A stretch of DNA of 64,000 bases from an archaeon GW2011_AR18 (GTDB taxonomy: Archaea > Nanobdellota > Nanobdellia > SCGC-AAA011-G17 > GW2011-AR18), in assembly GCA_000806155.1 (NCBI GenBank), contig JWKX01000001.1:739-64738 (forward strand), given 5' to 3'. Of this stretch, positions 3,499-60,211 are shown piece after piece. Each line of letters starts with the position of its first letter. Position 1 is the first letter of the stretch. Position numbers and translations under genes: made by a program. The notes under the pieces were generated by a model. It saw nothing but the letters and a program-made list of their open reading frames with translations. It had not been told where the DNA came from and made no database searches.

Positions 3499-4077
3499 AT
3501 GGGATTATATAAATACTTATCAAAAGCTATCAGAAGCCATTCAACTGAAATGATACAAATTCAGAGAGAGAGAATGATTGAATGGAGAAGAGAGAATAAT
3601 GTTAAGAAAATCGAGTATCCTACTAATTTAGTTTCAGCTAGAAGACTTGGTTACAAAGCTAAGACTGGTTTTATTTTAATAAGAGTTAGAGTTCCTAGAG
3701 GTGGTAAAGCACGTCCTAGTATCAGACATGGTAGAAGATCTGCTCATTCAGGTCAAAGATTAGTTTTCGCTAAAGGTTATCAGAGAGTAGCTGAAGAGAG
3801 AGCTAACAAACAATATCCTAATCTTGAAGTTTTAAATTCTTACAAAGCAGGTATGGATGGTGTTCATTATTGGTTTGAGGTTATAATGTTAGATCCTTAT
3901 AATCCTAATGTTGCTAATTCACCTACTGTTGGATGGATTTCAAATGGTAAGCATAATGGTAGAGTTTATCGTGGATTAACTTCTGCAGGAAAACGCAATA
4001 GAGGATTAGGAAATAAAGGACAAGGTGCTGAAAAACTAAGACATAGTTTAAGAGCTCATGATAAGACTGGTAAGTAA
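3499..4077 (+). CDS. rpl15e: 50S ribosomal protein L15e
   Basis: MGLYKYLSKAIR ... GYKAKTGFILIRVRVPRGG ... YWFEVIMLDP matches the L15e family along its full length. Confidence 0.9.
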   Translation: MGLYKYLSKAIRSHSTEMIQIQRERMIEWRRENNVKKIEYPTNLVSARRLGYKAKTGFILIRVRVPRGGKARPSIRHGRRSAHSGQRLVFAKGYQRVAEERANKQYPNLEVLNSYKAGMDGVHYWFEVIMLDPYNPNVANSPTVGWISNGKHNGRVYRGLTSAGKRNRGLGNKGQGAEKLRHSLRAHDKTGK

Positions 4078-4108: not shown

Positions 4109-5038
4109 ATGATTAAAACTTTAGTTACTAGCTATAATAATCCAGATCTTGATGGTTCTGCTTGTTCTTTTGCTTATGCTGAATTCCTGAATAAGACTAA
4201 CACAGAGATTATAGCAGCAGTATTTGGCAAGATTCATCGTGAGGCAGAGTTTGTTTTTAATAAGTTTAATATTACTCAAATGCAAGACGCTGATGATTTA
4301 AGAAATTTAGAAAATTATAATTTTATTCTTGTTGATTCTTCTGATCTTAAGGGTATTTCAAGAAAGATTATTCCAAATAAGGTTATTGAAGTAATTGATC
4401 ATAGAAAAATTAATGATTCTTATATGTTCCAGAATGCTAAAGTTCAGATTGAATTAGTTGGTTCCTGTGGTACTTTGATTGCTGAAAAATTTTATAATAA
4501 TAAAGTTGATATCTCTAAAGAATCTGCTATTTTATTATATTCTGCTATTATTTCTAATACTATTAATTTTAAGGCTAATGTTACAACTGATCGTGATCGC
4601 AATATGGCTTCTTTTTTAAAGTCTAAATTAGATCTTCCTGATGATTATGCTCATGAGATGTTTTATTTTAAATCTAGATTTAATACTTCTTTGAAAGAGA
4701 CTATTATTCATGATTTTGCTTATTTTAATTTCTCTGATAAGAATATTGGTATTGCTCAGTTAGAGATTGTTGATGTTGATAATTTTATTAAAAATAATTT
4801 AGGAGAATTGAATACTATTCTTAATAATCTAAAAAATGATAGAAAATTTGATTTTATTTTTTTAAGTTGTATTGATATTGAAGCAGGTTTTAACACTTTT
4901 TTAGTTATAGATGATAGTTCTAAAAGTTTAGTTGAGAATTCTTTAAATATTAAATTTAATAATAACATTTGTAAAATATCAGGCATAATAATGAGGAAAG
5001 AGATAACTCCTAAGTTGAAAGAATTTTTAGAAAGATAA
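4109..5038 (+). CDS. DHH/DHHA2 family protein resembling family II (Mn-dependent) inorganic pyrophosphatase, with active-site substitutions
   Basis: Collinear with PpaC (309 aa): NPDLDGS, VIEVIDHR, VGSCGTLIAEKF, AIISNTINFKANVTTDRD and a C-terminal DHHA2-like region. The positions of His9, His98 and Asp149 appear as Y/S, R and N. Confidence 0.65.
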   Translation: MIKTLVTSYNNPDLDGSACSFAYAEFLNKTNTEIIAAVFGKIHREAEFVFNKFNITQMQDADDLRNLENYNFILVDSSDLKGISRKIIPNKVIEVIDHRKINDSYMFQNAKVQIELVGSCGTLIAEKFYNNKVDISKESAILLYSAIISNTINFKANVTTDRDRNMASFLKSKLDLPDDYAHEMFYFKSRFNTSLKETIIHDFAYFNFSDKNIGIAQLEIVDVDNFIKNNLGELNTILNNLKNDRKFDFIFLSCIDIEAGFNTFLVIDDSSKSLVENSLNIKFNNNICKISGIIMRKEITPKLKEFLER

Positions 5039-5040
5039 TA

Positions 5041-6417
5041 CTAATAACAAACATATGTTTCTTCTTCTGGTAATGGTTTATACTTTAGTTTAGGACCATT
5101 TTTAGAAATTTCTTTTAATGCTTCAACTAATATATCAATATCTTTTTCTGTATTGTGTATTCCTATGCTTGCTCTTACTATCCCATAAGAAGCTAACCTA
5201 TTGCCTTTTTTTATTTGCTCTTCTATTTTATTCTGTTCTTTATCATTAATATTAAACCATCTTCTTACTAATCTATGATTACATATTGTTCCAGCTCTTG
5301 TCTCTATCCCATATTCATTTTCCAATATAGAAGATAATAATGCATGATGACAATCTTTAAGATTGAAAGTAAATGTTCCTATTCTATCTTCTTCTAGATA
5401 TGTTTCTGGTTTAACATACAAAGTTATTCCTGGAACTGTTCTTAACTTCTCTACTGCATAATCTATTAATTTTCTTTCATGATTAATAATATTATTCCAT
5501 CCTGTATTCATTATTGTTTTACAACTTGCTGATGTTGCTATTATTCCTGTAACATTCCAAGTTCCAGTCTGATGTCTTAGTTCCGAAGGTGACCAGATTA
5601 CACCTGTTTCATTTATCATGTCTATTGAACCTCCGCCAGGATCTACAGGTGAAGTTTCTAAAATTTTCTTGGGTAAAGCTAAAACGCCTAATCCAAATGG
5701 GGCATATAATTTATGTGAAGAGAAAGCTAATGTGTCTATATTATCATTTTTCATATCAATTTTCCTATGTGGTGCTAATTGTGCTGCATCTACAAATAAT
5801 AGTGCATTATGTTTATGTGCTATTTTTGAAATCTTTTTTATATTGGGGATATATCCTGTTAAGTTTGAAGCTCCAGTTATTGTTATTAATTTTAAGTTCT
5901 TGGAATATTTTTTTGCTTTATTTTCTAGATCTTTATAGTCTATTGAACCATCATCAAAAGAGTTTATATAAATAGTTTTACAACTGCCAAATTTCCATGG
6001 TAAGTTGTTTGATGTATGTTCAATGAATGAAGTTAGTACTACATCATTTTTACTGAATTTTAATAATCTTGATAATAGGTTTATTGCATTGCTTGTATTT
6101 GATGTGAAGATTAATTCTTGATCTTCTCTTAGATTTAGGAATGTTTTTATTGTTTTTATTGCTTCAGTTGCTTTTTTATATGTTATATTAGCATGAGGTC
6201 CAGCTCCCCTATGTAATGCCCCATAAGTTTGTAAAAATTCATTAACTTCTTTTAAAGTTTCTTTAAATGGTGGTGTTGTGGCTGCATTATTCAGCATTAT
6301 TATTTTTTTAACACTTCCATTCTTTAATTTTATAGAGTTATTTGTTCCAATGACTTCTGGAAGTATATTTTTCATATAATTCAACAATAAACAAGATTTA
6401 TATCCCTTATTATCCAA
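5041..6417 (-). CDS. aminotransferase class V fold PLP-dependent enzyme (cysteine desulfurase-like)
   Basis: SSHKLYAPFGLGVL PLP-lysine motif and a class V fold N-terminal region, with a roughly 60 aa C-terminal extension. Confidence 0.75.
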   Translation of the reverse strand: MDNKGYKSCLLLNYMKNILPEVIGTNNSIKLKNGSVKKIIMLNNAATTPPFKETLKEVNEFLQTYGALHRGAGPHANITYKKATEAIKTIKTFLNLREDQELIFTSNTSNAINLLSRLLKFSKNDVVLTSFIEHTSNNLPWKFGSCKTIYINSFDDGSIDYKDLENKAKKYSKNLKLITITGASNLTGYIPNIKKISKIAHKHNALLFVDAAQLAPHRKIDMKNDNIDTLAFSSHKLYAPFGLGVLALPKKILETSPVDPGGGSIDMINETGVIWSPSELRHQTGTWNVTGIIATSASCKTIMNTGWNNIINHERKLIDYAVEKLRTVPGITLYVKPETYLEEDRIGTFTFNLKDCHHALLSSILENEYGIETRAGTICNHRLVRRWFNINDKEQNKIEEQIKKGNRLASYGIVRASIGIHNTEKDIDILVEALKEISKNGPKLKYKPLPEEETYVCY

Positions 6418-8345: not shown

Positions 8346-8753
8346 ATGCTATCTAAAGTTAATGTTTATTGTGATGGTGCTTCTAGAGGAAATCCAGGAA
8401 GATCTTCTATTGGCGTTGTTATTTATGATTCCGATATGAATATTATTGAAAGATATAAAGAATTTATTGGTAAGAATACTAATAATTTTGCTGAATATAG
8501 TTCTCTGATTAAAGCTTTAAAATTAGCTTCTAAATTTACTGATAATGAGGTTAATGTTTTTATGGATTCTGAATTAGTTGTTAAACAGTTATTAGGTAAA
8601 TATAAAGTTAAACAAGTTCATCTTAAGATTTTATTTGATAAAGTTAAAATTAATGAAAAATTGTTCTCTAAAGTTAATTATAAGAATGTTCCTAGAGAAA
8701 ATATTTATCAACAAGAAGCAGATAAGTTAGCTAATGAGGCTTTAGATTCTTAA
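8346..8753 (+). CDS. rnhA: ribonuclease HI (type 1 RNase H)
   Basis: DGASRGNPG ... AEY ... MDSELVVKQL pattern of the RNase H1 fold. Length 135 aa. Confidence 0.8.
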   Translation: MLSKVNVYCDGASRGNPGRSSIGVVIYDSDMNIIERYKEFIGKNTNNFAEYSSLIKALKLASKFTDNEVNVFMDSELVVKQLLGKYKVKQVHLKILFDKVKINEKLFSKVNYKNVPRENIYQQEADKLANEALDS

Positions 8754-9307
8754 TAATGCTTTTTTGTATCTTCTGCATGTGAAAAGAATGAAACATTGCA
8801 GTTTATCATTTTTTCATAGAATTCTAGTTCATGTCTTTTCTTTTTTGATTCAAATAATATCATTCCTAATCCTTCCCAGAATAAGAACCATCCTCCCGGC
8901 TCTAATAATATTATCAAGAAATTCAACAATAGGCTATGCTCTTCATAATAAAAGAGTATGAATGTTGCTATAATCATTAGCATAATGCCTGTTATTGTAA
9001 AAGCTGCTCCTTTTTGCATTAATTTAATTTTTTCATCATGCAATAGTTTGTAATGTTTATGAAAATGAACTAACAGCCTTTGTTTGATAATATTCTCATA
9101 ATTTTTATCTCTCCCTTTTAATGGGAGGCAGAATTTTATATTTTTTAATTCTCCTTTCTTTTTTTCTATACTTGCTTTTCTTGTTTCTAGTAAAAAATCA
9201 TCTGATAAAGTTCTTACAGAATAGTTTCTATGATCAAAGTCTGAGAATAGATCATTATATCCATTAAGCCATAGATTTATTTCTGCTGCATTATCTTCCT
9301 CTTTCAT
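8750..9307 (-). CDS. hypothetical membrane protein
   Basis: 185 aa ORF with two or three hydrophobic helices in its C-terminal half. Confidence 0.4.
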   Translation of the reverse strand: MKEEDNAAEINLWLNGYNDLFSDFDHRNYSVRTLSDDFLLETRKASIEKKKGELKNIKFCLPLKGRDKNYENIIKQRLLVHFHKHYKLLHDEKIKLMQKGAAFTITGIMLMIIATFILFYYEEHSLLLNFLIILLEPGGWFLFWEGLGMILFESKKKRHELEFYEKMINCNVSFFSHAEDTKKHY

Positions 9308-9343
9308 AAGAAATTATTTGTTAAAATGAATTTATAAATATTG

Positions 9344-9351
9344 CTTATTTT
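9344..9351 (+). repeat. target site duplication (left copy) CTTATTTT
   Basis: Identical 8-mer immediately outside both inverted repeats. Confidence 0.7.
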
Positions 9352-9373
9352 GGTTCTGTAACTTAAAAGGTTG
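9352..9373 (+). repeat. left terminal inverted repeat of IS6-like element
   Basis: GGTTCTGTAACTTAAAAGGTTG. It begins with GGTTCTG, as in IS26/IS257-type IRs. Confidence 0.8.
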
Positions 9374-9646
9374 ATGAATTATTGGATAGATAGTTTTTTA
9401 AGCATAAAATTATTGATTAGTTTTATGAATAGAAACCAATGGTTAGTACTAAGCATAGGATTATTTTTAGCTGGTTCAATTTTAGTGAATTTTTCAATGT
9501 TTTGTGGTGGGTTTACTGATGAATTATTAACATCTTGTATGATACAAAGGTACGCTTTTGGCATCCCATCTATAATCATGGGTATATTAGGAGTCTTGTT
9601 TTTTATTATAGCATTGTTAGAACCTAAAAAGAAGAACTTAGATTAA
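9374..9646 (+). CDS. small hydrophobic ORF inside IS element (possibly spurious)
   Basis: 91 aa with two hydrophobic segments. It overlaps the 3' end of the transposase gene. Confidence 0.2.
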   Translation: MNYWIDSFLSIKLLISFMNRNQWLVLSIGLFLAGSILVNFSMFCGGFTDELLTSCMIQRYAFGIPSIIMGILGVLFFIIALLEPKKKNLD

Positions 9647-10478
9647 TCAAACTTAACCATTTATTCTGTCCTAGTTTTAATTCTATTAAGCTTTTCTGTG
9701 CTGGTGTTGTATTTATTCCTTGATGTATTCTTATGTAATTATACCACACTATTAGTAAATCTAGTATTGCTATTGCTGAATACTCTCTTTTTAGTCCACG
9801 CATTACTTTTACTCTTTCTCTTATTGTTCCTTGAACTCTCTCAATAATATTGTTTCTTTTATCCTTATCAGCTTTTAGTCTAGTATAACATTCTCTGTCT
9901 TGACTTTTCTTTTTCTTTCCCCATGTTTTACGATATGCTTTCATGTATGCTGGAAGTTTATCAGTAAATAATTTTATTGGTGGTTGTTTTACTTTCATGA
10001 AGAACTTTCTAGCTTCTTTACTGCTTCTCTTAGTTGAATAATGAGTAGCTACCAAAAACCTTGTTCTTGCATCTACAATATCCCAATAATAGTTCTGTTC
10101 ACCTTTACATTTTATGAATATCTCATCAGCATGATATACTCTGCTTAATTGAGGTTCTAAATTGTCTGTAAAAGATTTTATTAGTTTACTATACTTTATT
10201 AGCCATCTCCATACACTCATATGGCTCACTCCTTGAGGAGTAAACTGTCTAACATGACTTCTTATCTTTCTAAGGCTCATTCCATTAAAATACAAATCCA
10301 AACAAGATGTAATAAGTTCTTTTGATTTTCTCATATGATAAAAACCATCATTCAAAGTAAAGAACCTTTTACATTCTTTGCACTTATAACGTTGCTTAAT
10401 TCCGTTAAGTGTTTGCCTTTTAGACCATTTAACAATACTCTTAGAACCACAAAACCTACATTGTATATTCTCTTCCAT
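9624..10478 (-). CDS. IS6 family DDE transposase with N-terminal zinc finger
   Basis: YHADEIFIKCKGEQNYYWDIVDARTRFLV matches the IS6 DE...K..G...Y.W.A.D signature. N-terminal CxxC...CxxC as in archaeal IS6 transposases. C-terminal NNIIERVQGTIRER ... IRIHQG. Confidence 0.8.
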   Translation of the reverse strand: MEENIQCRFCGSKSIVKWSKRQTLNGIKQRYKCKECKRFFTLNDGFYHMRKSKELITSCLDLYFNGMSLRKIRSHVRQFTPQGVSHMSVWRWLIKYSKLIKSFTDNLEPQLSRVYHADEIFIKCKGEQNYYWDIVDARTRFLVATHYSTKRSSKEARKFFMKVKQPPIKLFTDKLPAYMKAYRKTWGKKKKSQDRECYTRLKADKDKRNNIIERVQGTIRERVKVMRGLKREYSAIAILDLLIVWYNYIRIHQGINTTPAQKSLIELKLGQNKWLSLINLSSSF

Positions 10479-10627
10479 AGAATATTATGGTACCGCCAGT
10501 TTATATATCTTACGGTACCATAATTATGGCGCAAAATACAACTTTATCTTTTATATAACTTATTTATCGTCTATTAACATTTTGCGCAAAACAAAGATTT
10601 AAATAGAAGAAAGGCTCTATTTTTAGC

Positions 10628-11695
10628 ATGACATGGGTAAAGCCAAAGGGACATTCTAAATCAAGAATCAATTGGGCAGGAGATGTTTTAATTAATACTG
10701 AATCCACTGAAGAAGAAAAAATACTTGCAATAGAAATATTAGACAATTGGAGAGCAATACACAGTTATCCAATGCACATTTTTAAGAAAAGATTAAAAGA
10801 AAAATCTCGACTTTTAGATAAGAACCTATTAACTGTTCAAAGACTTAAACGTGTTACTGCTATTCTAAATAAACTAAAAAGAACGCAAACAAGTACTATG
10901 AATCTTTCACAGATGCAAGATATTGGCGGTTGTAGAGCCGTCTTGTCTAACGTTGCCCTAGTGAGGGATTTACACGAGAAGTATTACTTAAAGGAAAATT
11001 TTAAGCATAAAAAAATGAAAACACAGGACTATATCTCTAATCCAAAAAATGATGGTTATAGAAGTCTTCATTTAATTTATAAGTATAATACTGATAGAAA
11101 AGGAAAAAAATACTATAATGGATTACTTATAGAAATTCAGATAAGGTCAAGGTTACAACACCTTTGGGCAACAGCAGTTGAAACAGTTGGCTTCTTTACA
11201 AGACAGGCAATTAAATCTAATGAAGGACATCCAGATTGGGCAGAATTTTTTAAATTGATTAGTTCAGCATTTGCTAAAATGGAGAATTGCCCATATGTTC
11301 CAGATACTCCACAAGATGAAAAAGAATTATATACTAAAATAAAAGAAAAAGAAAAAGCATTGAAAATTATAGATAAATTAAAAGCATGGACAAATACAAT
11401 GAGACTTTTAGATGAAAAGATTAAAGCTAAAGATAAACATAAGGTAGAGTTTTTCTTACTAGAATTAGATATTGTTGGTAGAAAATTAGGAATTTTAACC
11501 TATACAAAGGAACAAGAACAAAAAGCTATAGATGATTACTCTGCACTCGAAAAAAGACATAGTGGTGCGAAAGACTATGATGTAGTACTTGTCGGGGCAG
11601 ATACAAGTAAGGATTTGAAAAAAGCTTACCCTAATTATTTTTTAGATACTGGAGACTTCTTAATTTATCTCCAAAAAATTATTAACAAATATTAA
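10628..11695 (+). CDS. RelA/SpoT-homolog synthetase-domain protein (small alarmone synthetase / toxSAS-like), cargo of IS element
   Basis: RLKRVTAILNKLKR, DIGGCRAVL, DYISNPKNDGYRSLHLIY and IEIQIRSRLQHLWA match the nucleotidyltransferase motifs of the (p)ppGpp synthetase domain. There is a roughly 150 aa coiled-coil-rich C-terminal extension and no HD hydrolase domain. Confidence 0.75.
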   Translation: MTWVKPKGHSKSRINWAGDVLINTESTEEEKILAIEILDNWRAIHSYPMHIFKKRLKEKSRLLDKNLLTVQRLKRVTAILNKLKRTQTSTMNLSQMQDIGGCRAVLSNVALVRDLHEKYYLKENFKHKKMKTQDYISNPKNDGYRSLHLIYKYNTDRKGKKYYNGLLIEIQIRSRLQHLWATAVETVGFFTRQAIKSNEGHPDWAEFFKLISSAFAKMENCPYVPDTPQDEKELYTKIKEKEKALKIIDKLKAWTNTMRLLDEKIKAKDKHKVEFFLLELDIVGRKLGILTYTKEQEQKAIDDYSALEKRHSGAKDYDVVLVGADTSKDLKKAYPNYFLDTGDFLIYLQKIINKY

Positions 11696-11697
11696 TA

Positions 11698-11862
11698 CTA
11701 TTCTTTATCAATAATTATTCTGTGATTTTCAATCCTTGCTTTAAGTTCTTTTCCAAAAAAGTTGGACTGTTCTACAATATCTTTAGGTAAATTCAGAATA
11801 TACTTTGAATATTCTTTATTGTCTACCTTCTTTGATAGTACCTTTATTATTTTCATAATCAT
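11698..11862 (-). CDS. small AbrB/SpoVT-like ORF (54 aa), candidate antitoxin
   Basis: Manually translated: MIMKIIKVLSKKVDNKEYSKYILNLPKDIVEQSNFFGKELKARIENHRIIIDKE. Resembles swapped-hairpin antitoxins (VapB/MazE-like). Convergent with the RSH gene and inside the IS. Confidence 0.35.
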   Translation of the reverse strand: MIMKIIKVLSKKVDNKEYSKYILNLPKDIVEQSNFFGKELKARIENHRIIIDKE

Positions 11863-11925
11863 TTAATGTACAACCAGTATTTATATTTTTCTGTACCATA
11901 AAAAATTTTTAAGTTTTTCATCTAT

Positions 11926-11947
11926 CAACCTTTTAAGTTACAGAACC
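11926..11947 (-). repeat. right terminal inverted repeat of IS6-like element
   Basis: CAACCTTTTAAGTTACAGAACC, the exact reverse complement of the left IR. Confidence 0.8.
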
Positions 11948-11955
11948 CTTATTTT
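11948..11955 (+). repeat. target site duplication (right copy) CTTATTTT
   Basis: Identical 8-mer immediately outside both inverted repeats. Confidence 0.7.
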
Positions 11956-11960
11956 AAAGT

Positions 11961-12383
11961 TTATTCTGCTATTAAGTTTCCGTATCCCATTCCCATTGAG
12001 CATGAGAATTTGTATGTTCCTGGTTTTTTTATTGTTAGTTCCAATGTATCTGTGCTTGATATTAAATACTCCGATATTCCTAAACTTCTTATTGTGAATG
12101 CTCTATAGCATCCTGTTACACTGTCATCTAATGTTATGCTTATTTTCTGTCCTGCTTTTACTCTTATCTGATTTGGATAATAATTATAGTTCTTGAAACC
12201 TATTACAATATTTTGCACATCAGCTGTTTCTTCATTTATATTATTTTCATTGACAGGAATTTCTTTTTCAGTATTAGTGAATATAAAATATCCTCCTATT
12301 ATTATGATTATTATTATGCCTAATATTACTGTTGTATTCTTCATTGGAATATTCCACCTCTTGGGCCGTAGATTATTATCCAT
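11961..12383 (-). CDS. cupredoxin-like domain protein with N-terminal signal anchor
   Basis: YYPNQIRVKAGQKISITL ... GTYKFSCSMGMG resembles the small-blue-copper / EfeO-like cupredoxin fold. Adjacent to the copper ATPase cluster. Confidence 0.45.
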   Translation of the reverse strand: MDNNLRPKRWNIPMKNTTVILGIIIIIIIGGYFIFTNTEKEIPVNENNINEETADVQNIVIGFKNYNYYPNQIRVKAGQKISITLDDSVTGCYRAFTIRSLGISEYLISSTDTLELTIKKPGTYKFSCSMGMGYGNLIAE

Positions 12384-13024
12384 GTTGTTATTGAGATTAA
12401 TACTATTGTAAATATTATTGTAAATAGGTGATCATCTTTTTTCTCTCTCTCAGTTTCTTTTGTCTCATTATATACCATGTAATTTAGTTTTATCATTATT
12501 ATTGAACTTATTATAAATATTAGTATTCCAGCAGTTTTTAGATGGTCATTTAATAGCATGACTGATGTCATTGCTCCCATCAATCCTCCCATGAATCCTG
12601 CCATTATTCCTTCCATTGATCCCATTATCCCGCAGGATTTTCCTGTCCATACCCCTATTATTATTCCTATTATTACACCTAAGAATCCTCCGTAGAACAT
12701 TCCATTTGTTGAAGCAACATAAAATCCTATTAAAAATGATGATAACATGCCTAATGTCATTCCTATCATCATCCCGCTCATGCATGGGAATTCTTTGTAT
12801 GCTCTTACCTGTCTTATTGCAGGTGTTATTATTGCATAGCTTAAAGCACTAAAAAATAAATAAAATCCATATTTTGGTATTATGCTCTCTATTGTTTTTA
12901 ATTTCAGATAATATGCTATAAATAAGAAGATGAATGATGTTAATAAAGAATAGAACATTGTTATTAGTAATTCTCCCTCTACTCTATTGCCGTTTAATTC
13001 TTTTACAAAATTTTTGAATGCCAT
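12341..13024 (-). CDS. Met-rich polytopic membrane protein (putative copper-handling)
   Basis: Multiple GM/MxxM repeats (GMMIGMTLGM, MGSMEGIMAGFMGGLMGAM) within TM helices. Located between copA and the cupredoxin gene. Confidence 0.5.
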   Translation of the reverse strand: MAFKNFVKELNGNRVEGELLITMFYSLLTSFIFLFIAYYLKLKTIESIIPKYGFYLFFSALSYAIITPAIRQVRAYKEFPCMSGMMIGMTLGMLSSFLIGFYVASTNGMFYGGFLGVIIGIIIGVWTGKSCGIMGSMEGIMAGFMGGLMGAMTSVMLLNDHLKTAGILIFIISSIIMIKLNYMVYNETKETEREKKDDHLFTIIFTIVLISITTWIIIYGPRGGIFQ

Positions 13025-13025
13025 T

Positions 13026-14970
<1,945 letters not shown>

Positions 14971-14978
<8 letters not shown>

Positions 14979-15189
14979 ACTCCAGTTTTGTTGCTGTATA
15001 TCCCGCTTTTTTTACTGCATTTTTTATATCTTCTTCTTTGACATTGTCTTCAATTTCAGCATATCCTTTTTTCATTATCACATTTACTCTTATATTTTTT
15101 ATTCCGTTTATTTTAGATAGGCTTTTCTCTATATTTGAAGCACATGATGCACAATGCATTCCTTGTATGTAGATTACTATTTTTTTCAT
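14971..15189 (-). CDS. copZ: heavy-metal-associated (HMA) domain copper chaperone
   Basis: GMHCASCASNIEKSL = GMxCxxC metal-binding motif. 72 aa, overlapping the copA start. Confidence 0.85.
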
Positions 15190-15419
15190 TTTTTTCCACC
15201 CAATTGTTTAATTAACCAAATTATAAACAATATTAGAGCTGCTGCAAAAAGAGTCATTAATAACCATCCAAATAATGGCATATATCCAAATCCTGAATAA
15301 AATCCTCCCATCATCCCATAGTTTCTAAAACCCATCATTCCATAACCTCCAAATAATGGTATTATAAATATTAAGATTATTGTTAAAATAATTATTATTG
15401 TCACGTTTTCATTTTTCAT
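15186..15419 (-). CDS. small Gly/Met-rich membrane protein
   Basis: 77 aa. GGYGMMGFRNYGMMGGFYSGFGYM between two hydrophobic helices. Co-oriented in the cop cluster. Confidence 0.4.
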   Translation of the reverse strand: MKNENVTIIIILTIILIFIIPLFGGYGMMGFRNYGMMGGFYSGFGYMPLFGWLLMTLFAAALILFIIWLIKQLGGKK

Positions 15420-15421
15420 TT

Positions 15422-15619
15422 TTATTCCTTATTTTTTATATTAAATGCTGTATGTATCCAGCACCATCCTATGAAACTCTCTATTAATGCTATTATTCCA
15501 ATAATTGTAATTATCCAGTTTATCCATATTGTATTAAATTCTGGTCTGAATGGTCCTAATAGCCAGAATGCTAAAGCAAATCTTAATACCCTGTCAGTTT
15601 TTCCTAAGTTTTTTTTCAT
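15422..15619 (-). CDS. DUF2892 family (YgaP-like) membrane protein
   Basis: MKKNLGKTDRVLRFALAFWLLGPF ... IGWCWIHTAFN matches the DUF2892 pattern. 65 aa. Confidence 0.6.
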   Translation of the reverse strand: MKKNLGKTDRVLRFALAFWLLGPFRPEFNTIWINWIITIIGIIALIESFIGWCWIHTAFNIKNKE

Positions 15620-15993
15620 TTTTTTACCTCTTTGTTTTTTGTTTTACCATGCAGTATATGCACGCAATATTGTGACATGTGTTCATCTATTAGCTCCATC
15701 AATGGGTTTATTGTCTTTTTGTTTAGTTTATAATATCTGTATTTTCCTTCTATCTCTGATTTTACAAAACCACATTTTTTTAATCTTGCTAGATCATGTG
15801 ATACTGCTGTCTGATTCATTCCTAATTCTTTGATTATCTGTGTAACATTCTTTTTTTCTTTTCTCAGCATATTTATTATTCTTAGTCTTGGTTCTGACAC
15901 TAATGTTCCAAAGAATATTTTATAGCTTCCGTAGATATCTTTCTCACTAAGACAATGTTCATGTGATTTTCCCAGCATATTTTTAGTTATCAT
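15616..15993 (-). CDS. ArsR/SmtB family metalloregulator
   Basis: wHTH region LSEPRLRIINMLRKEKKNVTQIIKELGMNQTAVSHDLARLKKCGFV. First gene of the minus-strand cop cluster. Confidence 0.8.
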   Translation of the reverse strand: MITKNMLGKSHEHCLSEKDIYGSYKIFFGTLVSEPRLRIINMLRKEKKNVTQIIKELGMNQTAVSHDLARLKKCGFVKSEIEGKYRYYKLNKKTINPLMELIDEHMSQYCVHILHGKTKNKEVKK

Positions 15994-16276
15994 ATGAGAA
16001 AGCGATACATATAAGTATTTAAAGTTTATTATAAAAAATAGTATTATTTAATTACATTATTTTATGATAATTGTGCAAAAACAACTCTCTGAAAATGTTT
16101 TGTAATCTCAGTGCTTTTTTGAGTGTGTTTTTTCTCCTGACATCCAGATATTTTTGATTATATGGCTCGTTTTCCATGTTTTTTACTCCTTCTTTGGTTT
16201 TCCGAAGATATAAGCTCTGTAGTCATGTTGTTGCCAAAACCCAAAATTTATAAATAAATCACAATATCGAGGTTAT

Positions 16277-16506
16277 AGACGCCAAGGTTTTGTTGCCTTT
16301 GCTTTTTTCTGTTTGTTTAGTTCTTTTGAACCTTATTGGATTGTTTTATTTCATCTGAGCATTTTGTTTGTGCCAGATATTTTTGTGCTACCATGTTTAC
16401 TTTTGTCAACAAGCTATAATGCTTGTAAAATGTTTTATAAGACTATAATGGATATAAAGTATTTAAGCTCTTCCAAGTTTTTTGTAACCTTGGTGCCATT
16501 GTATAT
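16277..16506 (+). ncRNA. candidate structured ncRNA A (unknown family)
   Basis: TATA-like box at about 16254-16261, then AGGTTATAGACGCCAAGGTT at the predicted start. A 12-nt terminal helix GACGCCAAGGUU/AACCUUGGUGCC (one mismatch) closes a roughly 230-nt region. No convincing ORF inside. Confidence 0.3.
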
Positions 16507-41595: not shown

Positions 41596-41705
41596 CGCCC
41601 TGGCCGAGATTTGAACTCGAGTTATGACCTTTCGTTGACAAAACATTATATAAAATAAAGCTTCATCTCGACAGGGTCAGGTGCTGACCGCTACACTACC
41701 AAGGC
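41596..41705 (-). tRNA. tRNA-Asp (GTC) with canonical-position intron (~38 nt)
   Basis: GCCTTGG-TA-GTGT-AGCGGTCA-GCAC-C-TGACC-CTGTCG[intron]A-GGTCA-TAAC-TCGAG-TTCAAAT-CTCGG-CCAGGGC-G. Confidence 0.75.
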
Positions 41706-59782: not shown

Positions 59783-60048
59783 TAGTAGGCACGCCCAAGA
59801 GTGGATACACTAATCTTCACAGGTTGAGTCCTAATCTTTCCTCTACCCCGCTACCCTGTAAGCGTTATCTTGAATGCTTATTGTTGCTTTGTTCCCAATC
59901 TCACAAGTTTCACAATCAAAACAACCAGACAGGACAGGATATCACTGTAGTTATTAGGGCCTGCAAAAATTAATGCATCGCCTCTTGGACTTCGACTCCA
60001 TCTAAGACCGTTTATGGTTACAGGTGCGGCCTAAACACCCAGCCTAGC
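59783..60048 (-). ncRNA. ffs: candidate signal recognition particle RNA (7S RNA)
   Basis: Minus-strand reading contains the Alu-domain-like GGGUGUUUAGGCCGCACCUGUAACC (UGUAAC motif). A helix-8-like GUUGUUUUG ... CAAAGCAAC contains AGCA. Termini pair (UAGGC/GCCUA). No ORF is coherent across the region, and there are T-runs at both ends. Confidence 0.45.
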
Positions 60049-60211
60049 TTTTTTTAGTCCGAATGAGAATGGATATTTGTCTTCTGTTCCTTCCTCGCTT
60101 AATATCATTGTCTTATGTCCTTTAAATTCTCCTGTTTTTGCTGTCATTTTATTTTTCTCCTTATGATTTTATTTAAGTTTTAAATTTAGTAGATTATTAT
60201 ATACTTTATGA

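Follow-up and report, generated by a model that had tools for sequence, protein, structure and literature searches.

DNA transposons that carry cargo are central to gene flow in bacteria and scarcely documented in archaea. According to the review of Varani et al. (2021), most members of the IS6 family of insertion sequences (IS) measure 700–890 bp, share a transposase identity of at least about 40% and produce 8-bp target duplications; a single passenger-carrying member ('transporter IS'), ISDsp3, is named. Harmer and Hall found GG and a G at position 7 at the ends of nearly all IS6/IS26 members, and they proposed that the archaeal 'IS6' elements and the long zinc-finger group be split from IS6/IS26. 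In a 2019 survey of archaeal integrated elements, composite, passenger-carrying DNA transposons were not detected in archaea; a 2026 census of archaeal IS does not mention passenger genes, the word 'cargo' having been seen there only in reference titles. The screen of Furuta et al. (2010) for mobile restriction-modification (R-M) units yielded transposon-like units in bacteria only. We have analysed a 64,000-nt stretch of the genome of archaeon GW2011_AR18 (contig JWKX01000001.1), a groundwater member of the Woesearchaeota (DPANN); this stretch is referred to as the window, in which a 2596-bp element (positions 9352–11947) encloses an IS6-like transposase gene and a CapRel-type defence gene within one pair of inverted ends. 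We assign a probability of about 0.8 to the reading that this element is one intact, single-copy unit transposon, a 'transporter IS' in ISfinder terms. Its main features are:

9344–9351, no strand: target-site duplication copy 1, CTTATTTT, abutting the outer side of the repeat
9352–9373, plus strand: terminal inverted repeat on the transposase 3' side (IRR by IS convention), GGTTCTGTAACTTAAAAGGTTG, starting with GG and with G at position 7
9624–10478, minus strand: transposase, 284 aa, with an N-terminal CxxC..CxxC zinc finger and a DDE domain (D118, D173, E213; R at E+7)
10628–11695, plus strand: CapRel-type fused toxSAS toxin-antitoxin, 355 aa, passenger (the RSH gene); R72, R103, Y144 and Y334-x-x-Y337 conserved
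11698–11862, minus strand: AbrB/MazE-like small protein, 54 aa, family F3 by family alignment, proposed regulator, with counterparts in at least 12 other transposase loci
11926–11947, minus strand: terminal inverted repeat on the transposase 5' side (IRL by IS convention), CAACCTTTTAAGTTACAGAACC, the exact reverse complement of GGTTCTGTAACTTAAAAGGTTG
11948–11955, no strand: target-site duplication copy 2, CTTATTTT, abutting the outer side of the repeat

The two terminal repeats match perfectly (22/22), their ends read GGTTCTG, and both are directly flanked by the same 8-mer, as had been reported in a first-pass annotation of this DNA. The complementarity between the ends extends inward in weaker form, to 49 nt at 76%. 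When up to three mismatches were allowed, the 22-mer was found in the window at these two ends only, and 100 dinucleotide-preserving shuffles gave no match. Counting both strands, the window contains the flanking CTTATTTT 17 times, in line with chance; at this frequency the chance of meeting it at one fixed position is ∼1.3e-4, and the duplication is therefore real and not a by-product of AT-richness. The passengers lie inside a single repeat pair, the duplication brackets the whole unit of three to four open reading frames (ORFs), and two relatives described below (L012 and L111) represent the same cargo-bearing unit at two sites, passengers and transposase moving together as in a transporter IS or unit transposon. 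The cargo-carrying transposon proposed in the first-pass annotation is supported by the IS6-type transposase, inverted repeats and 8-bp duplication that enclose the extra genes, and this reading is strengthened because relatives carry cargo to different sites with different duplications.

Relatives of the transposase were collected in two scans. The first, of species-representative genomes, returned archaeon GW2011_AR20 and one genome each of Pacearchaeota, Woesearchaeota and Nanoarchaeota; in the second, of metagenome contigs, 80 of the 138 loci found were kept. Element borders were set first from the terminal repeats and then with a position weight matrix for the ends, which yielded 37 complete elements, including that of the window, with lengths of 2371–5518 bp and none of ∼1 kb; in contigs cut at one end, the single arm was often already longer than 1–2 kb. 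Thus, where other copies of the repeats might have occurred with or without cargo, the complete relatives were all cargo-bearing. The GGTTCTGT..GGTTG ends recur in relatives, and perfect duplications of 8 or 9 bp border 27 of the 37 complete elements. Duplications of 8 bp flank the element of the window as well as L006 and L111; that of L012 allows a reading of 8 or 9 bp, and all the others are 9 bp long.

The relatives also report on what is moved. L012 and L111 match at 90.7% identity along their whole length, the homology stops at the repeats, and the duplications are TAAATTAG and GTTTTTTG, respectively; the same unit with different duplications implies that it moves with its cargo. L070, L074 and L081 share their first (left) 2.8 kb at 84–86% identity (endonuclease, methylase, small ORF and transposase) and differ in right-arm cargo and in duplications, which shows modular cargo exchange together with independent insertions. 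The complete genome of archaeon AR20 (0.83 Mb) contains one copy each of two different members (L006/L017 and L041). A possible second case of the same unit at two sites, L085/L090, was set aside, as ∼50 nt of the left flank is also homologous. L054 (13–3499) and L055 (114–3600) hold the same 3487-bp element with the same right flank, different left flanks and no duplication, which may reflect an element-mediated rearrangement or an assembly chimera.

The 31 non-redundant elements encode 188 ORFs that fall into 108 clusters, with the transposase as the only universal gene. A DNA methyltransferase is present in 21 of the 31 annotated elements; the methylases are of the N6_N4 type with a RAMA domain (12 elements), the Eco57I type, C5 and D12, or large type IIG/L fusions, and they frequently have an endonuclease partner (MjaI, TaqI, EcoRV or another type II enzyme). 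Other cargo in the clade consists of Fic, a KAP/BrxC-like ATPase with a winged helix, MutS-like/AAA_21, a ClpP-like protease and HTH_XRE. The assignment of family F5 (199–208 aa) as a PIN toxin was dropped for want of Pfam or PADLOC support. The window element belongs to a clade of DPANN archaea in which each complete member recovered carries passengers, mostly for restriction-modification. We put the chances at even that these elements represent an undescribed family of unit transposons, mainly from DPANN (Woesearchaeota, Pacearchaeota, Nanoarchaeota and Aenigmarchaeota), in which an IS6-like transposase always travels with one to six passengers, mostly type II/IIG R-M and CapRel-like defence, and in which AbrB-like, zinc-ribbon and RHH-like regulators are swappable and act at TATA-flanking boxes.

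The window transposase matches Pfam DDE_Tnp_IS240 at 2.2e-17 (63.9 bits, cut-off 27), and its D118, D173, E213 and the R at E+7 align with ISCpe7, as expected for a DDE enzyme of the IS240/IS26 type. Its top NCBIfam model is transpos_IS6 (NF033587; 1.3e-33, 116.4 bits), followed by IS1 (3.9e-17). A tblastn search of 72,556 plasmids matched 1016 records; among the annotated matches listed, all are IS6-family transposases, the best being of the Clostridium ISCpe7 type (29–31% identity, E ∼1e-19). The ends (GGTTCTG, thus a GG start and G at position 7) and the 8-bp duplication of the window element are likewise those of IS6. Four observations count against a straightforward membership: the NCBIfam score stays below the trusted cut-off of the IS6 model (116.4 vs 125 bits), the nearest annotated IS6 transposases fall short of the ∼40% identity given by Varani et al., a relative bears the NCBI label 'IS1/IS6 family' transposase, and most clade members have 9-bp duplications versus the canonical 8 bp. 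The N-terminus matches the zinc-binding domain of IS1/IS1595. The size of a typical IS6 element as stated in the first-pass annotation (0.7–0.9 kb, one gene) agrees with the 2021 review, and at 2596 bp with three to four ORFs the present element lies outside this compact format, even when its range is extended to ∼1.7 kb. No solved structure was found for the transposase, and the ends of ISCpe7 were not delimited by a quick search. Of the earlier label 'IS6-family', the top model, the ends and the 8-bp duplication uphold the affinity; the score below the NCBIfam cut-off and the 29–31% identity do not, so 'IS6-like' is used here. Judged from its sequence, the element is IS6-like in enzyme, ends and duplication length, and whether the zinc-finger and archaeal groups belong in IS6 is a matter of dispute. 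By analogy, transposition and cointegrate formation in this clade would follow the IS6 route.

The insertion interrupts no gene. On one side it lies 5 nt past the stop of a cupredoxin gene (11961–12383, minus strand), with which a copper-export cluster ends; its opposite side is 37 nt ahead of the ATG of a gene for a 185-aa membrane protein, just upstream of a TATA-like box. The element is at the same site in all contigs of this population (at least 20), and this holds wherever the exact 185-aa neighbour, its 99% variant or the exact transposase was present. A comparison of 13 contigs from different samples shows no variation within 9352–11947, and patches of single-nucleotide polymorphisms (SNPs) are found in the flanks within 200–360 bp of each end (nearest 9144–9158 and 12302). 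SNP patches in other samples, at 9144–9158, 12302–12368, 3726–4002 and 15079–15321, resemble recombination tracts. The SNP deficit as proof of recency was dropped: it is a weak hint of youth, suggestive only, because the flank SNPs are clustered in few patches.

Two negative results weigh against the proposed insertion history. An empty site was not found among the contigs that hold the exact transposase or neighbour gene. A second copy of the exact element was not found either: an exact 20-mer had no match in the JGI metagenome collection and IMG/VR, which says little, as the metagenome collection evidently lacks the source contigs. The sister species (L117–L119, Hainich H52 contigs) is rearranged at this point, with an orthologue of the 185-aa gene (85% identical) upstream of the copper-export (cop) cluster and an unrelated 191-aa gene after the cupredoxin gene; this gene order places the transposon at, or within ∼10 nt of, a synteny breakpoint. 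In the comparison with window positions 8750–16500, sister-species homology stops ∼10 nt beyond the cupredoxin stop, and therefore no usable empty site is available there. The comparison with empty sites in related strains advised in the first-pass annotation thus came out negative, all contigs being occupied and the sister species rearranged. The recent insertion it had claimed is suggested by the perfect repeats, the perfect duplication and the zero polymorphism inside the element, but stays unproven with neither an empty site nor a second copy found. No viral contigs were found that encode a relative of the transposase. Genes for ParE, PIN/RHH and Fic are abundant in the upstream region of L117.

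According to PMC9712102, which cites structure 7ZTB, CapRelSJ46 is a fused toxin-antitoxin in which a C-terminal pseudo-zinc-finger domain autoinhibits the N-terminal toxSAS domain; binding of a phage capsid protein to the C-terminal domain leads to tRNA pyrophosphorylation and a block of translation. R79 and R116 are described there as ATP-coordinating, Y155 as part of the G-loop and the YxxY motif as autoinhibitory. In the RSH protein of the window, Pfam RelA_SpoT covers residues 71–182, and PADLOC PDC-S33, modelled as a single-gene candidate system, matches over the full length (2.6e-118); 'PDC-S33' was not found as a term in the literature searched. A phmmer search against the Protein Data Bank (PDB) returned 7ZTB and 9ERV at E 1e-47, with RSH residues 9–351 aligned to 15–369 of 373. 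The N-terminal synthetase and the C-terminal regulatory domain are thereby colinear with CapRelSJ46, and in the printed alignment R79, R116 and the G-loop Y155 of CapRelSJ46 correspond to R72, R103 and Y144 of the window protein and the YxxY motif to Y334-P-N-Y337. By these sequence matches the RSH protein is a full-length CapRel homologue, and it should therefore need no separate antitoxin. The RSH-synthetase gene listed as cargo in the first-pass annotation is indeed a passenger, now refined to a fused toxin-antitoxin of the CapRel type. We know of no archaeal CapRel member that has been tested.

Three control regions of the element are relevant to the passenger and to the 54-aa gene:

10485–10523, minus strand: transposase promoter, with a TATA box at 10500–10507 flanked by GGTACC at 10489 and 10514; it ends 7 nt before the ATG
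10529–10606, plus strand: RSH cassette control region, with GCGCAAAA at 10529 and 10584 and a TATA-like TTTAAATA at 10598
11863–11901, minus strand: promoter of the 54-aa gene, with 77% similarity to that of the transposase, reading TTATGGTACA..TATAAATA..TGTACATTAA; repeat family D3

More than 7000 homologues of the RSH protein were found; the top 120 are all ∼355 aa and 61–68% identical, and the few of these with a named source come from DPANN archaea and Methanoperedens. An identical protein is labelled 'Candidatus Woesearchaeota archaeon' in NCBI. In five other distinct loci the RSH gene stands alone among housekeeping genes. In every archaeal locus examined, transposon or not, two to four copies of ACCGCGCAAA(A), ∼52–55 nt apart and followed by a TATA box, precede the RSH gene. 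The copies in the window are at 10529–10536 and 10584–10591, and such repeats are also seen upstream of RSH in L092, L095, L097, L115 and L116. From its position the ACCGCGCAAA(A) repeat is a candidate operator. Since the upstream repeats and the TATA box are common to the loci examined, the passenger is a self-contained cassette (roughly 10524–11697) that consists of ACCGCGCAAAA-type repeats, TATA box and CapRel-type gene. In L095 (GCA_030648175.1, JAUSIB010000035.1), a CapRel-like cassette lies between direct repeats at 4874–4971 and 6133–6230 (66–98 nt, 79% identity, spaced 1259 nt), which recalls the 'insertion with long target duplication' of bacterial R-M; this arrangement would be a second, transposase-free way of moving the same cassette.

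By itself the 54-aa protein of the window gave no Pfam or PDB match; a PDB profile search returned nothing significant and no solved structure was found. Two of six aligned F3 homologues match PF04014 (MazE/SpoVT-AbrB; best 3.5e-6), and the label 'AbrB-like' is reasonable by family transitivity. F3 genes were detected by tblastn in L040, L041, L043, L047, L050, L051, L062, L063, L067, L068, L072 and L076, loci that had been fetched via their transposase; these loci, at least 12, show no RSH gene and have transposases 35–40% identical to that of the window. Conversely, the F3 gene accompanies RSH in one of six distinct RSH loci and is missing from the other five. The two window promoters at 10485–10523 and 11863–11901 make up direct-repeat family D3, and in all six F3-bearing elements both the transposase and the F3 promoter show a box-TATA-box layout, in which the TATA lies ∼25–30 nt ahead of the ATG and has a box of the GGTACC, GGATACC or AGATACC type on either side. 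The layout of the transposase promoter is also found in L041, L047, L050, L068 and L097. The small ORF, which the first-pass annotation had counted as cargo, is therefore probably not cargo, because it recurs in at least 12 RSH-less transposase loci and shares its promoter architecture with the transposase.

We lean slightly towards a role of the 54-aa protein as an element-encoded regulator, a putative repressor of itself and of the transposase. Two findings speak against this role. 'ACC' boxes flank the TATA also in elements that encode a zinc-ribbon protein (F2) or another small protein, and the boxes therefore do not identify the factor that binds them; moreover, L097 has kept an intact 52-aa F3 gene beside RSH with the transposase gene gone, which hints at an F3 function independent of the transposase. 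Strict co-variation of the operator motif with F3 was dropped, as promoter cross-comparison was not diagnostic and ACC boxes also accompany other small proteins. A GC-rich hairpin whose loop is constant (CGAAG) and whose stem pairs co-vary (CAGCCCCGAAGGGCTG, CTGCCCCGAAGGGCAG, GAGCCCCGAAGGGCTC, CGACCCCGAAGGGTCG, AAACCCCGAAGGGTTT) was observed 10–25 nt before the transposase ATG in L006 (5980–6000), L007, L012, L024, L027, L030, L031, L032 and L054, a subclade devoid of the AbrB-like gene; it is absent from the window element and may be an insulator, a terminator or a translational control element.

Decayed relatives bear on the history of the RSH-carrying variant. L097 and L098 (Nanoarchaeota, Hainich aquifer) align with window positions 10475–11811 at 71% identity, a stretch that runs from the transposase promoter through the RSH cassette into the F3 gene, most of which it includes. 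In L097 this homology sets in precisely where the transposase ATG lies, and nothing is left of the transposase coding sequence. L092 has a remnant box-TATA-box promoter upstream of its RSH gene. From these remnants it follows that the RSH-carrying variant is older and more widespread than one genome. At 6292–6318 of L097, an end-like sequence of a distant subclade, TGTATTGTAACATTAGCGGGTGCTAG, abuts the decayed RSH/F3 module and points away from it toward PIN and MazE genes; it probably belongs to a second, adjacent or nested element. L108 and L109 (6001–6585) contain a 194-aa transposase fragment that is the closest relative found (79% identical); it has no repeats and lies by an Hjc gene in visibly GC-richer DNA, a relic in a different lineage.

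Other readings of the element were weighed against this evidence. The transposase could be part of an ordinary short IS6-like IS beside unrelated resident genes, the far repeat being an isolated stray end or what is left of a second copy, as in a decayed compound transposon; IS6/IS26 elements classically mobilise cargo as two-copy pseudo-compound transposons, and part of the transposase promoter sequence recurs immediately inside the far end (family D3). However, the repeat has no counterpart near the start of the transposase gene; inside the element its closest match differs at 7–8 of 22 positions, which leaves no concealed inner end. It is the outer ends that are flanked by the 8-bp duplication, the repeated promoter-like sequence serves the 54-aa gene in a layout that recurs in distant relatives, and all 37 complete elements are long, near-identical long units occurring at different sites with different duplications. 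A short IS with a stray end is thus very improbable. That the unit is an old, fixed and immobile insertion, a relic retained only for its defence gene, agrees with the single copies of the transposase and RSH genes in the window, the identical site in every contig from many samples, the host-like GC content (29.4% for the element vs 29.7% for the whole window) and the existence of decayed relatives (L097, L092 and L108). The perfect repeats and 8-bp duplication, the intact transposase ORF with its conserved DDE triad and, as weak evidence given the clustering of SNPs, the absence of differences inside the element next to flanking SNP patches make this unlikely. Finally, the transposase may belong to IS1 or to a separate, unnamed family, in which case 'IS6-family' would be the wrong label though the element would work alike. 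The second NCBIfam match to IS1, the IS1/IS1595-type zinc domain, the double NCBI name of the relative, the dominance of 9-bp duplications in the clade and the split proposed by Harmer and Hall point in this direction; against it stand an IS6 model far better than IS1 (1.3e-33 vs 3.9e-17), the Pfam assignment to DDE_Tnp_IS240, the IS6-family identity of all annotated plasmid matches listed, the GG and G7 of the ends as in the IS6/IS26 consensus, and the 8-bp duplications of the window element and its two closest relatives. We regard membership outside IS6 as a doubtful but possible alternative to the IS6 label.

Within the unit transposon, the cargo might consist of the RSH and 54-aa genes together, as a two-gene toxSAS pair with an AbrB/MazE-like antitoxin. 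The genes are adjacent with a gap of 2 nt, the same convergent pair, with an intact 52-aa ORF, is present in L097/L098, and two F3 members match the MazE_antitoxin model of Pfam. Yet the convergent orientation excludes an operon, and a co-transcribed, conserved antitoxin partner as in two-gene toxSAS systems was not found. The RSH protein is colinear with the self-neutralising CapRelSJ46, including the C-terminal domain and the YxxY motif, and is treated as a single-gene candidate system by PADLOC; five of the six distinct RSH loci have no such neighbour, and the small protein is found in at least 12 transposase-centred loci showing no RSH. The 54-aa protein as RSH antitoxin, quite unlikely on this evidence, was therefore rejected as the main reading, given the convergent genes and the partner missing from five of six RSH loci, and the CapRel-type gene is taken as a passenger on its own.

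Taken together, a working model can be drawn up for the element. The insertion itself is shown by the sequence: the entire unit entered the stretch that separates the cupredoxin gene from the promoter of its neighbour, and 8 bp were duplicated. By analogy with the IS6 family, insertion would proceed through a replicative cointegrate formed via the two ends, which host homologous recombination would then resolve. The AbrB-like protein would, to judge from the promoter architecture, repress itself and the transposase and keep transposition rare. As in CapRelSJ46, the C-terminal domain of the passenger would keep the N-terminal pyrophosphokinase closed as long as no viral protein is bound; the released enzyme would pyrophosphorylate tRNA 3' ends, stop translation and abort the infection.

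A further ORF and several neighbouring features of the window were recorded:

9371–9646, plus strand: orphan ORF, 73–91 aa, with two hydrophobic segments, between the element end and the transposase stop and overlapping the transposase 3' end
8346–8753, plus strand: stand-alone RNase H / RVT_3 gene, 135 aa, adjoining the insertion-site neighbour, its position kept in the sister species
41596–41705, minus strand: Rfam tRNA match spanning 110 nt (44 bits)
59783–60054, minus strand: archaeal signal recognition particle (SRP) RNA (124 bits)

The orphan ORF is given 73 or 90 aa by gene callers; it has no Pfam or PADLOC match and no homologue in any other locus fetched, and may be spurious or a private passenger. 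The tRNA match is probably an intron-containing archaeal tRNA; ARAGORN reported no tRNA in the window. The SRP RNA confirms an archaeal host, which is also marked by a nearby gene for ribosomal protein L15e and by the Woesearchaeota label of the identical RSH protein.

Full-text literature searches found no equivalent of DPANN IS6 elements with cargo; their coverage is incomplete, so an earlier description is possible. The mechanism class, a DDE transposon with defence cargo, is already known, and the interest derives chiefly from the pattern across the clade and would be less for this element by itself. The clade offers a concrete vehicle that spreads R-M and a CapRel-type abortive-infection gene among organisms with genomes below 1 Mb, and natural evidence that an IS6-type transposase mobilises 1.5–4.5 kb of cargo as a unit. 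It is a possible basis for a genetic tool in archaea that presently lack one, and it presents a putative small regulatory circuit, composed of the AbrB-like protein and the TATA-flanking boxes. On the strength of the homology, CapRel-type immunity would extend to archaea. If the overall interpretation is correct, these would be the first well-delimited cargo-carrying DNA transposons of archaea, and such elements would be a main route of defence genes between the tiny genomes of these organisms.

Among described elements, the ISCpe7 type (clade h of Varani et al. 2021) provides the best annotated transposase match (29–31%, E 1e-19) and shares with the window element the first CxxC..CxxC finger, the DDE triad, a K/R at E+7, the GG ends and the 8-bp duplication. 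ISCpe7-type elements have one gene in ∼1.2–1.5 kb, whereas the window element carries passengers in 2.6 kb; its transposase has no second zinc-finger block, its host is archaeal, and most relatives in its clade duplicate 9 bp. ISDsp3 (Dehalococcoides sp. BAV1) resembles it in that one pair of ends encloses both a single IS6-type transposase and a passenger, but is a single element with one hypothetical passenger; the window clade comprises 37 complete elements with identifiable defence genes that vary between close relatives. In the pseudo-compound transposons and translocatable units of IS26/IS257, an IS6-type transposase also moves adjacent genes, with an 8-bp duplication and presumably the same cointegrate chemistry. 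These need two directly repeated copies, or an IS plus flanking DNA without an end of its own, whereas in the window element a lone transposase gene and the cargo are enclosed by just one pair of inverted ends. For the passenger, the counterpart is CapRelSJ46 (7ZTB), to which it is colinear over the full length (E 1e-47) with the arginines, the G-loop tyrosine and the YxxY motif conserved; the window homologue differs in being archaeal and transposon-borne, and the archaeal homologues examined have conserved upstream ACCGCGCAAAA repeats, of which no description was found in the CapRel text consulted. Defence genes, R-M in particular, also reside inside transposons in the units of Furuta et al. 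(2010), which have inverted repeats and short target duplications, and as cargo of Tn7-like elements. Those examples are from bacterial hosts and use other transposases, and no archaeal case passed the Furuta screen; the vehicle in the window clade is a 2.4–5.5-kb element with a single IS6-like transposase, in DPANN archaea.

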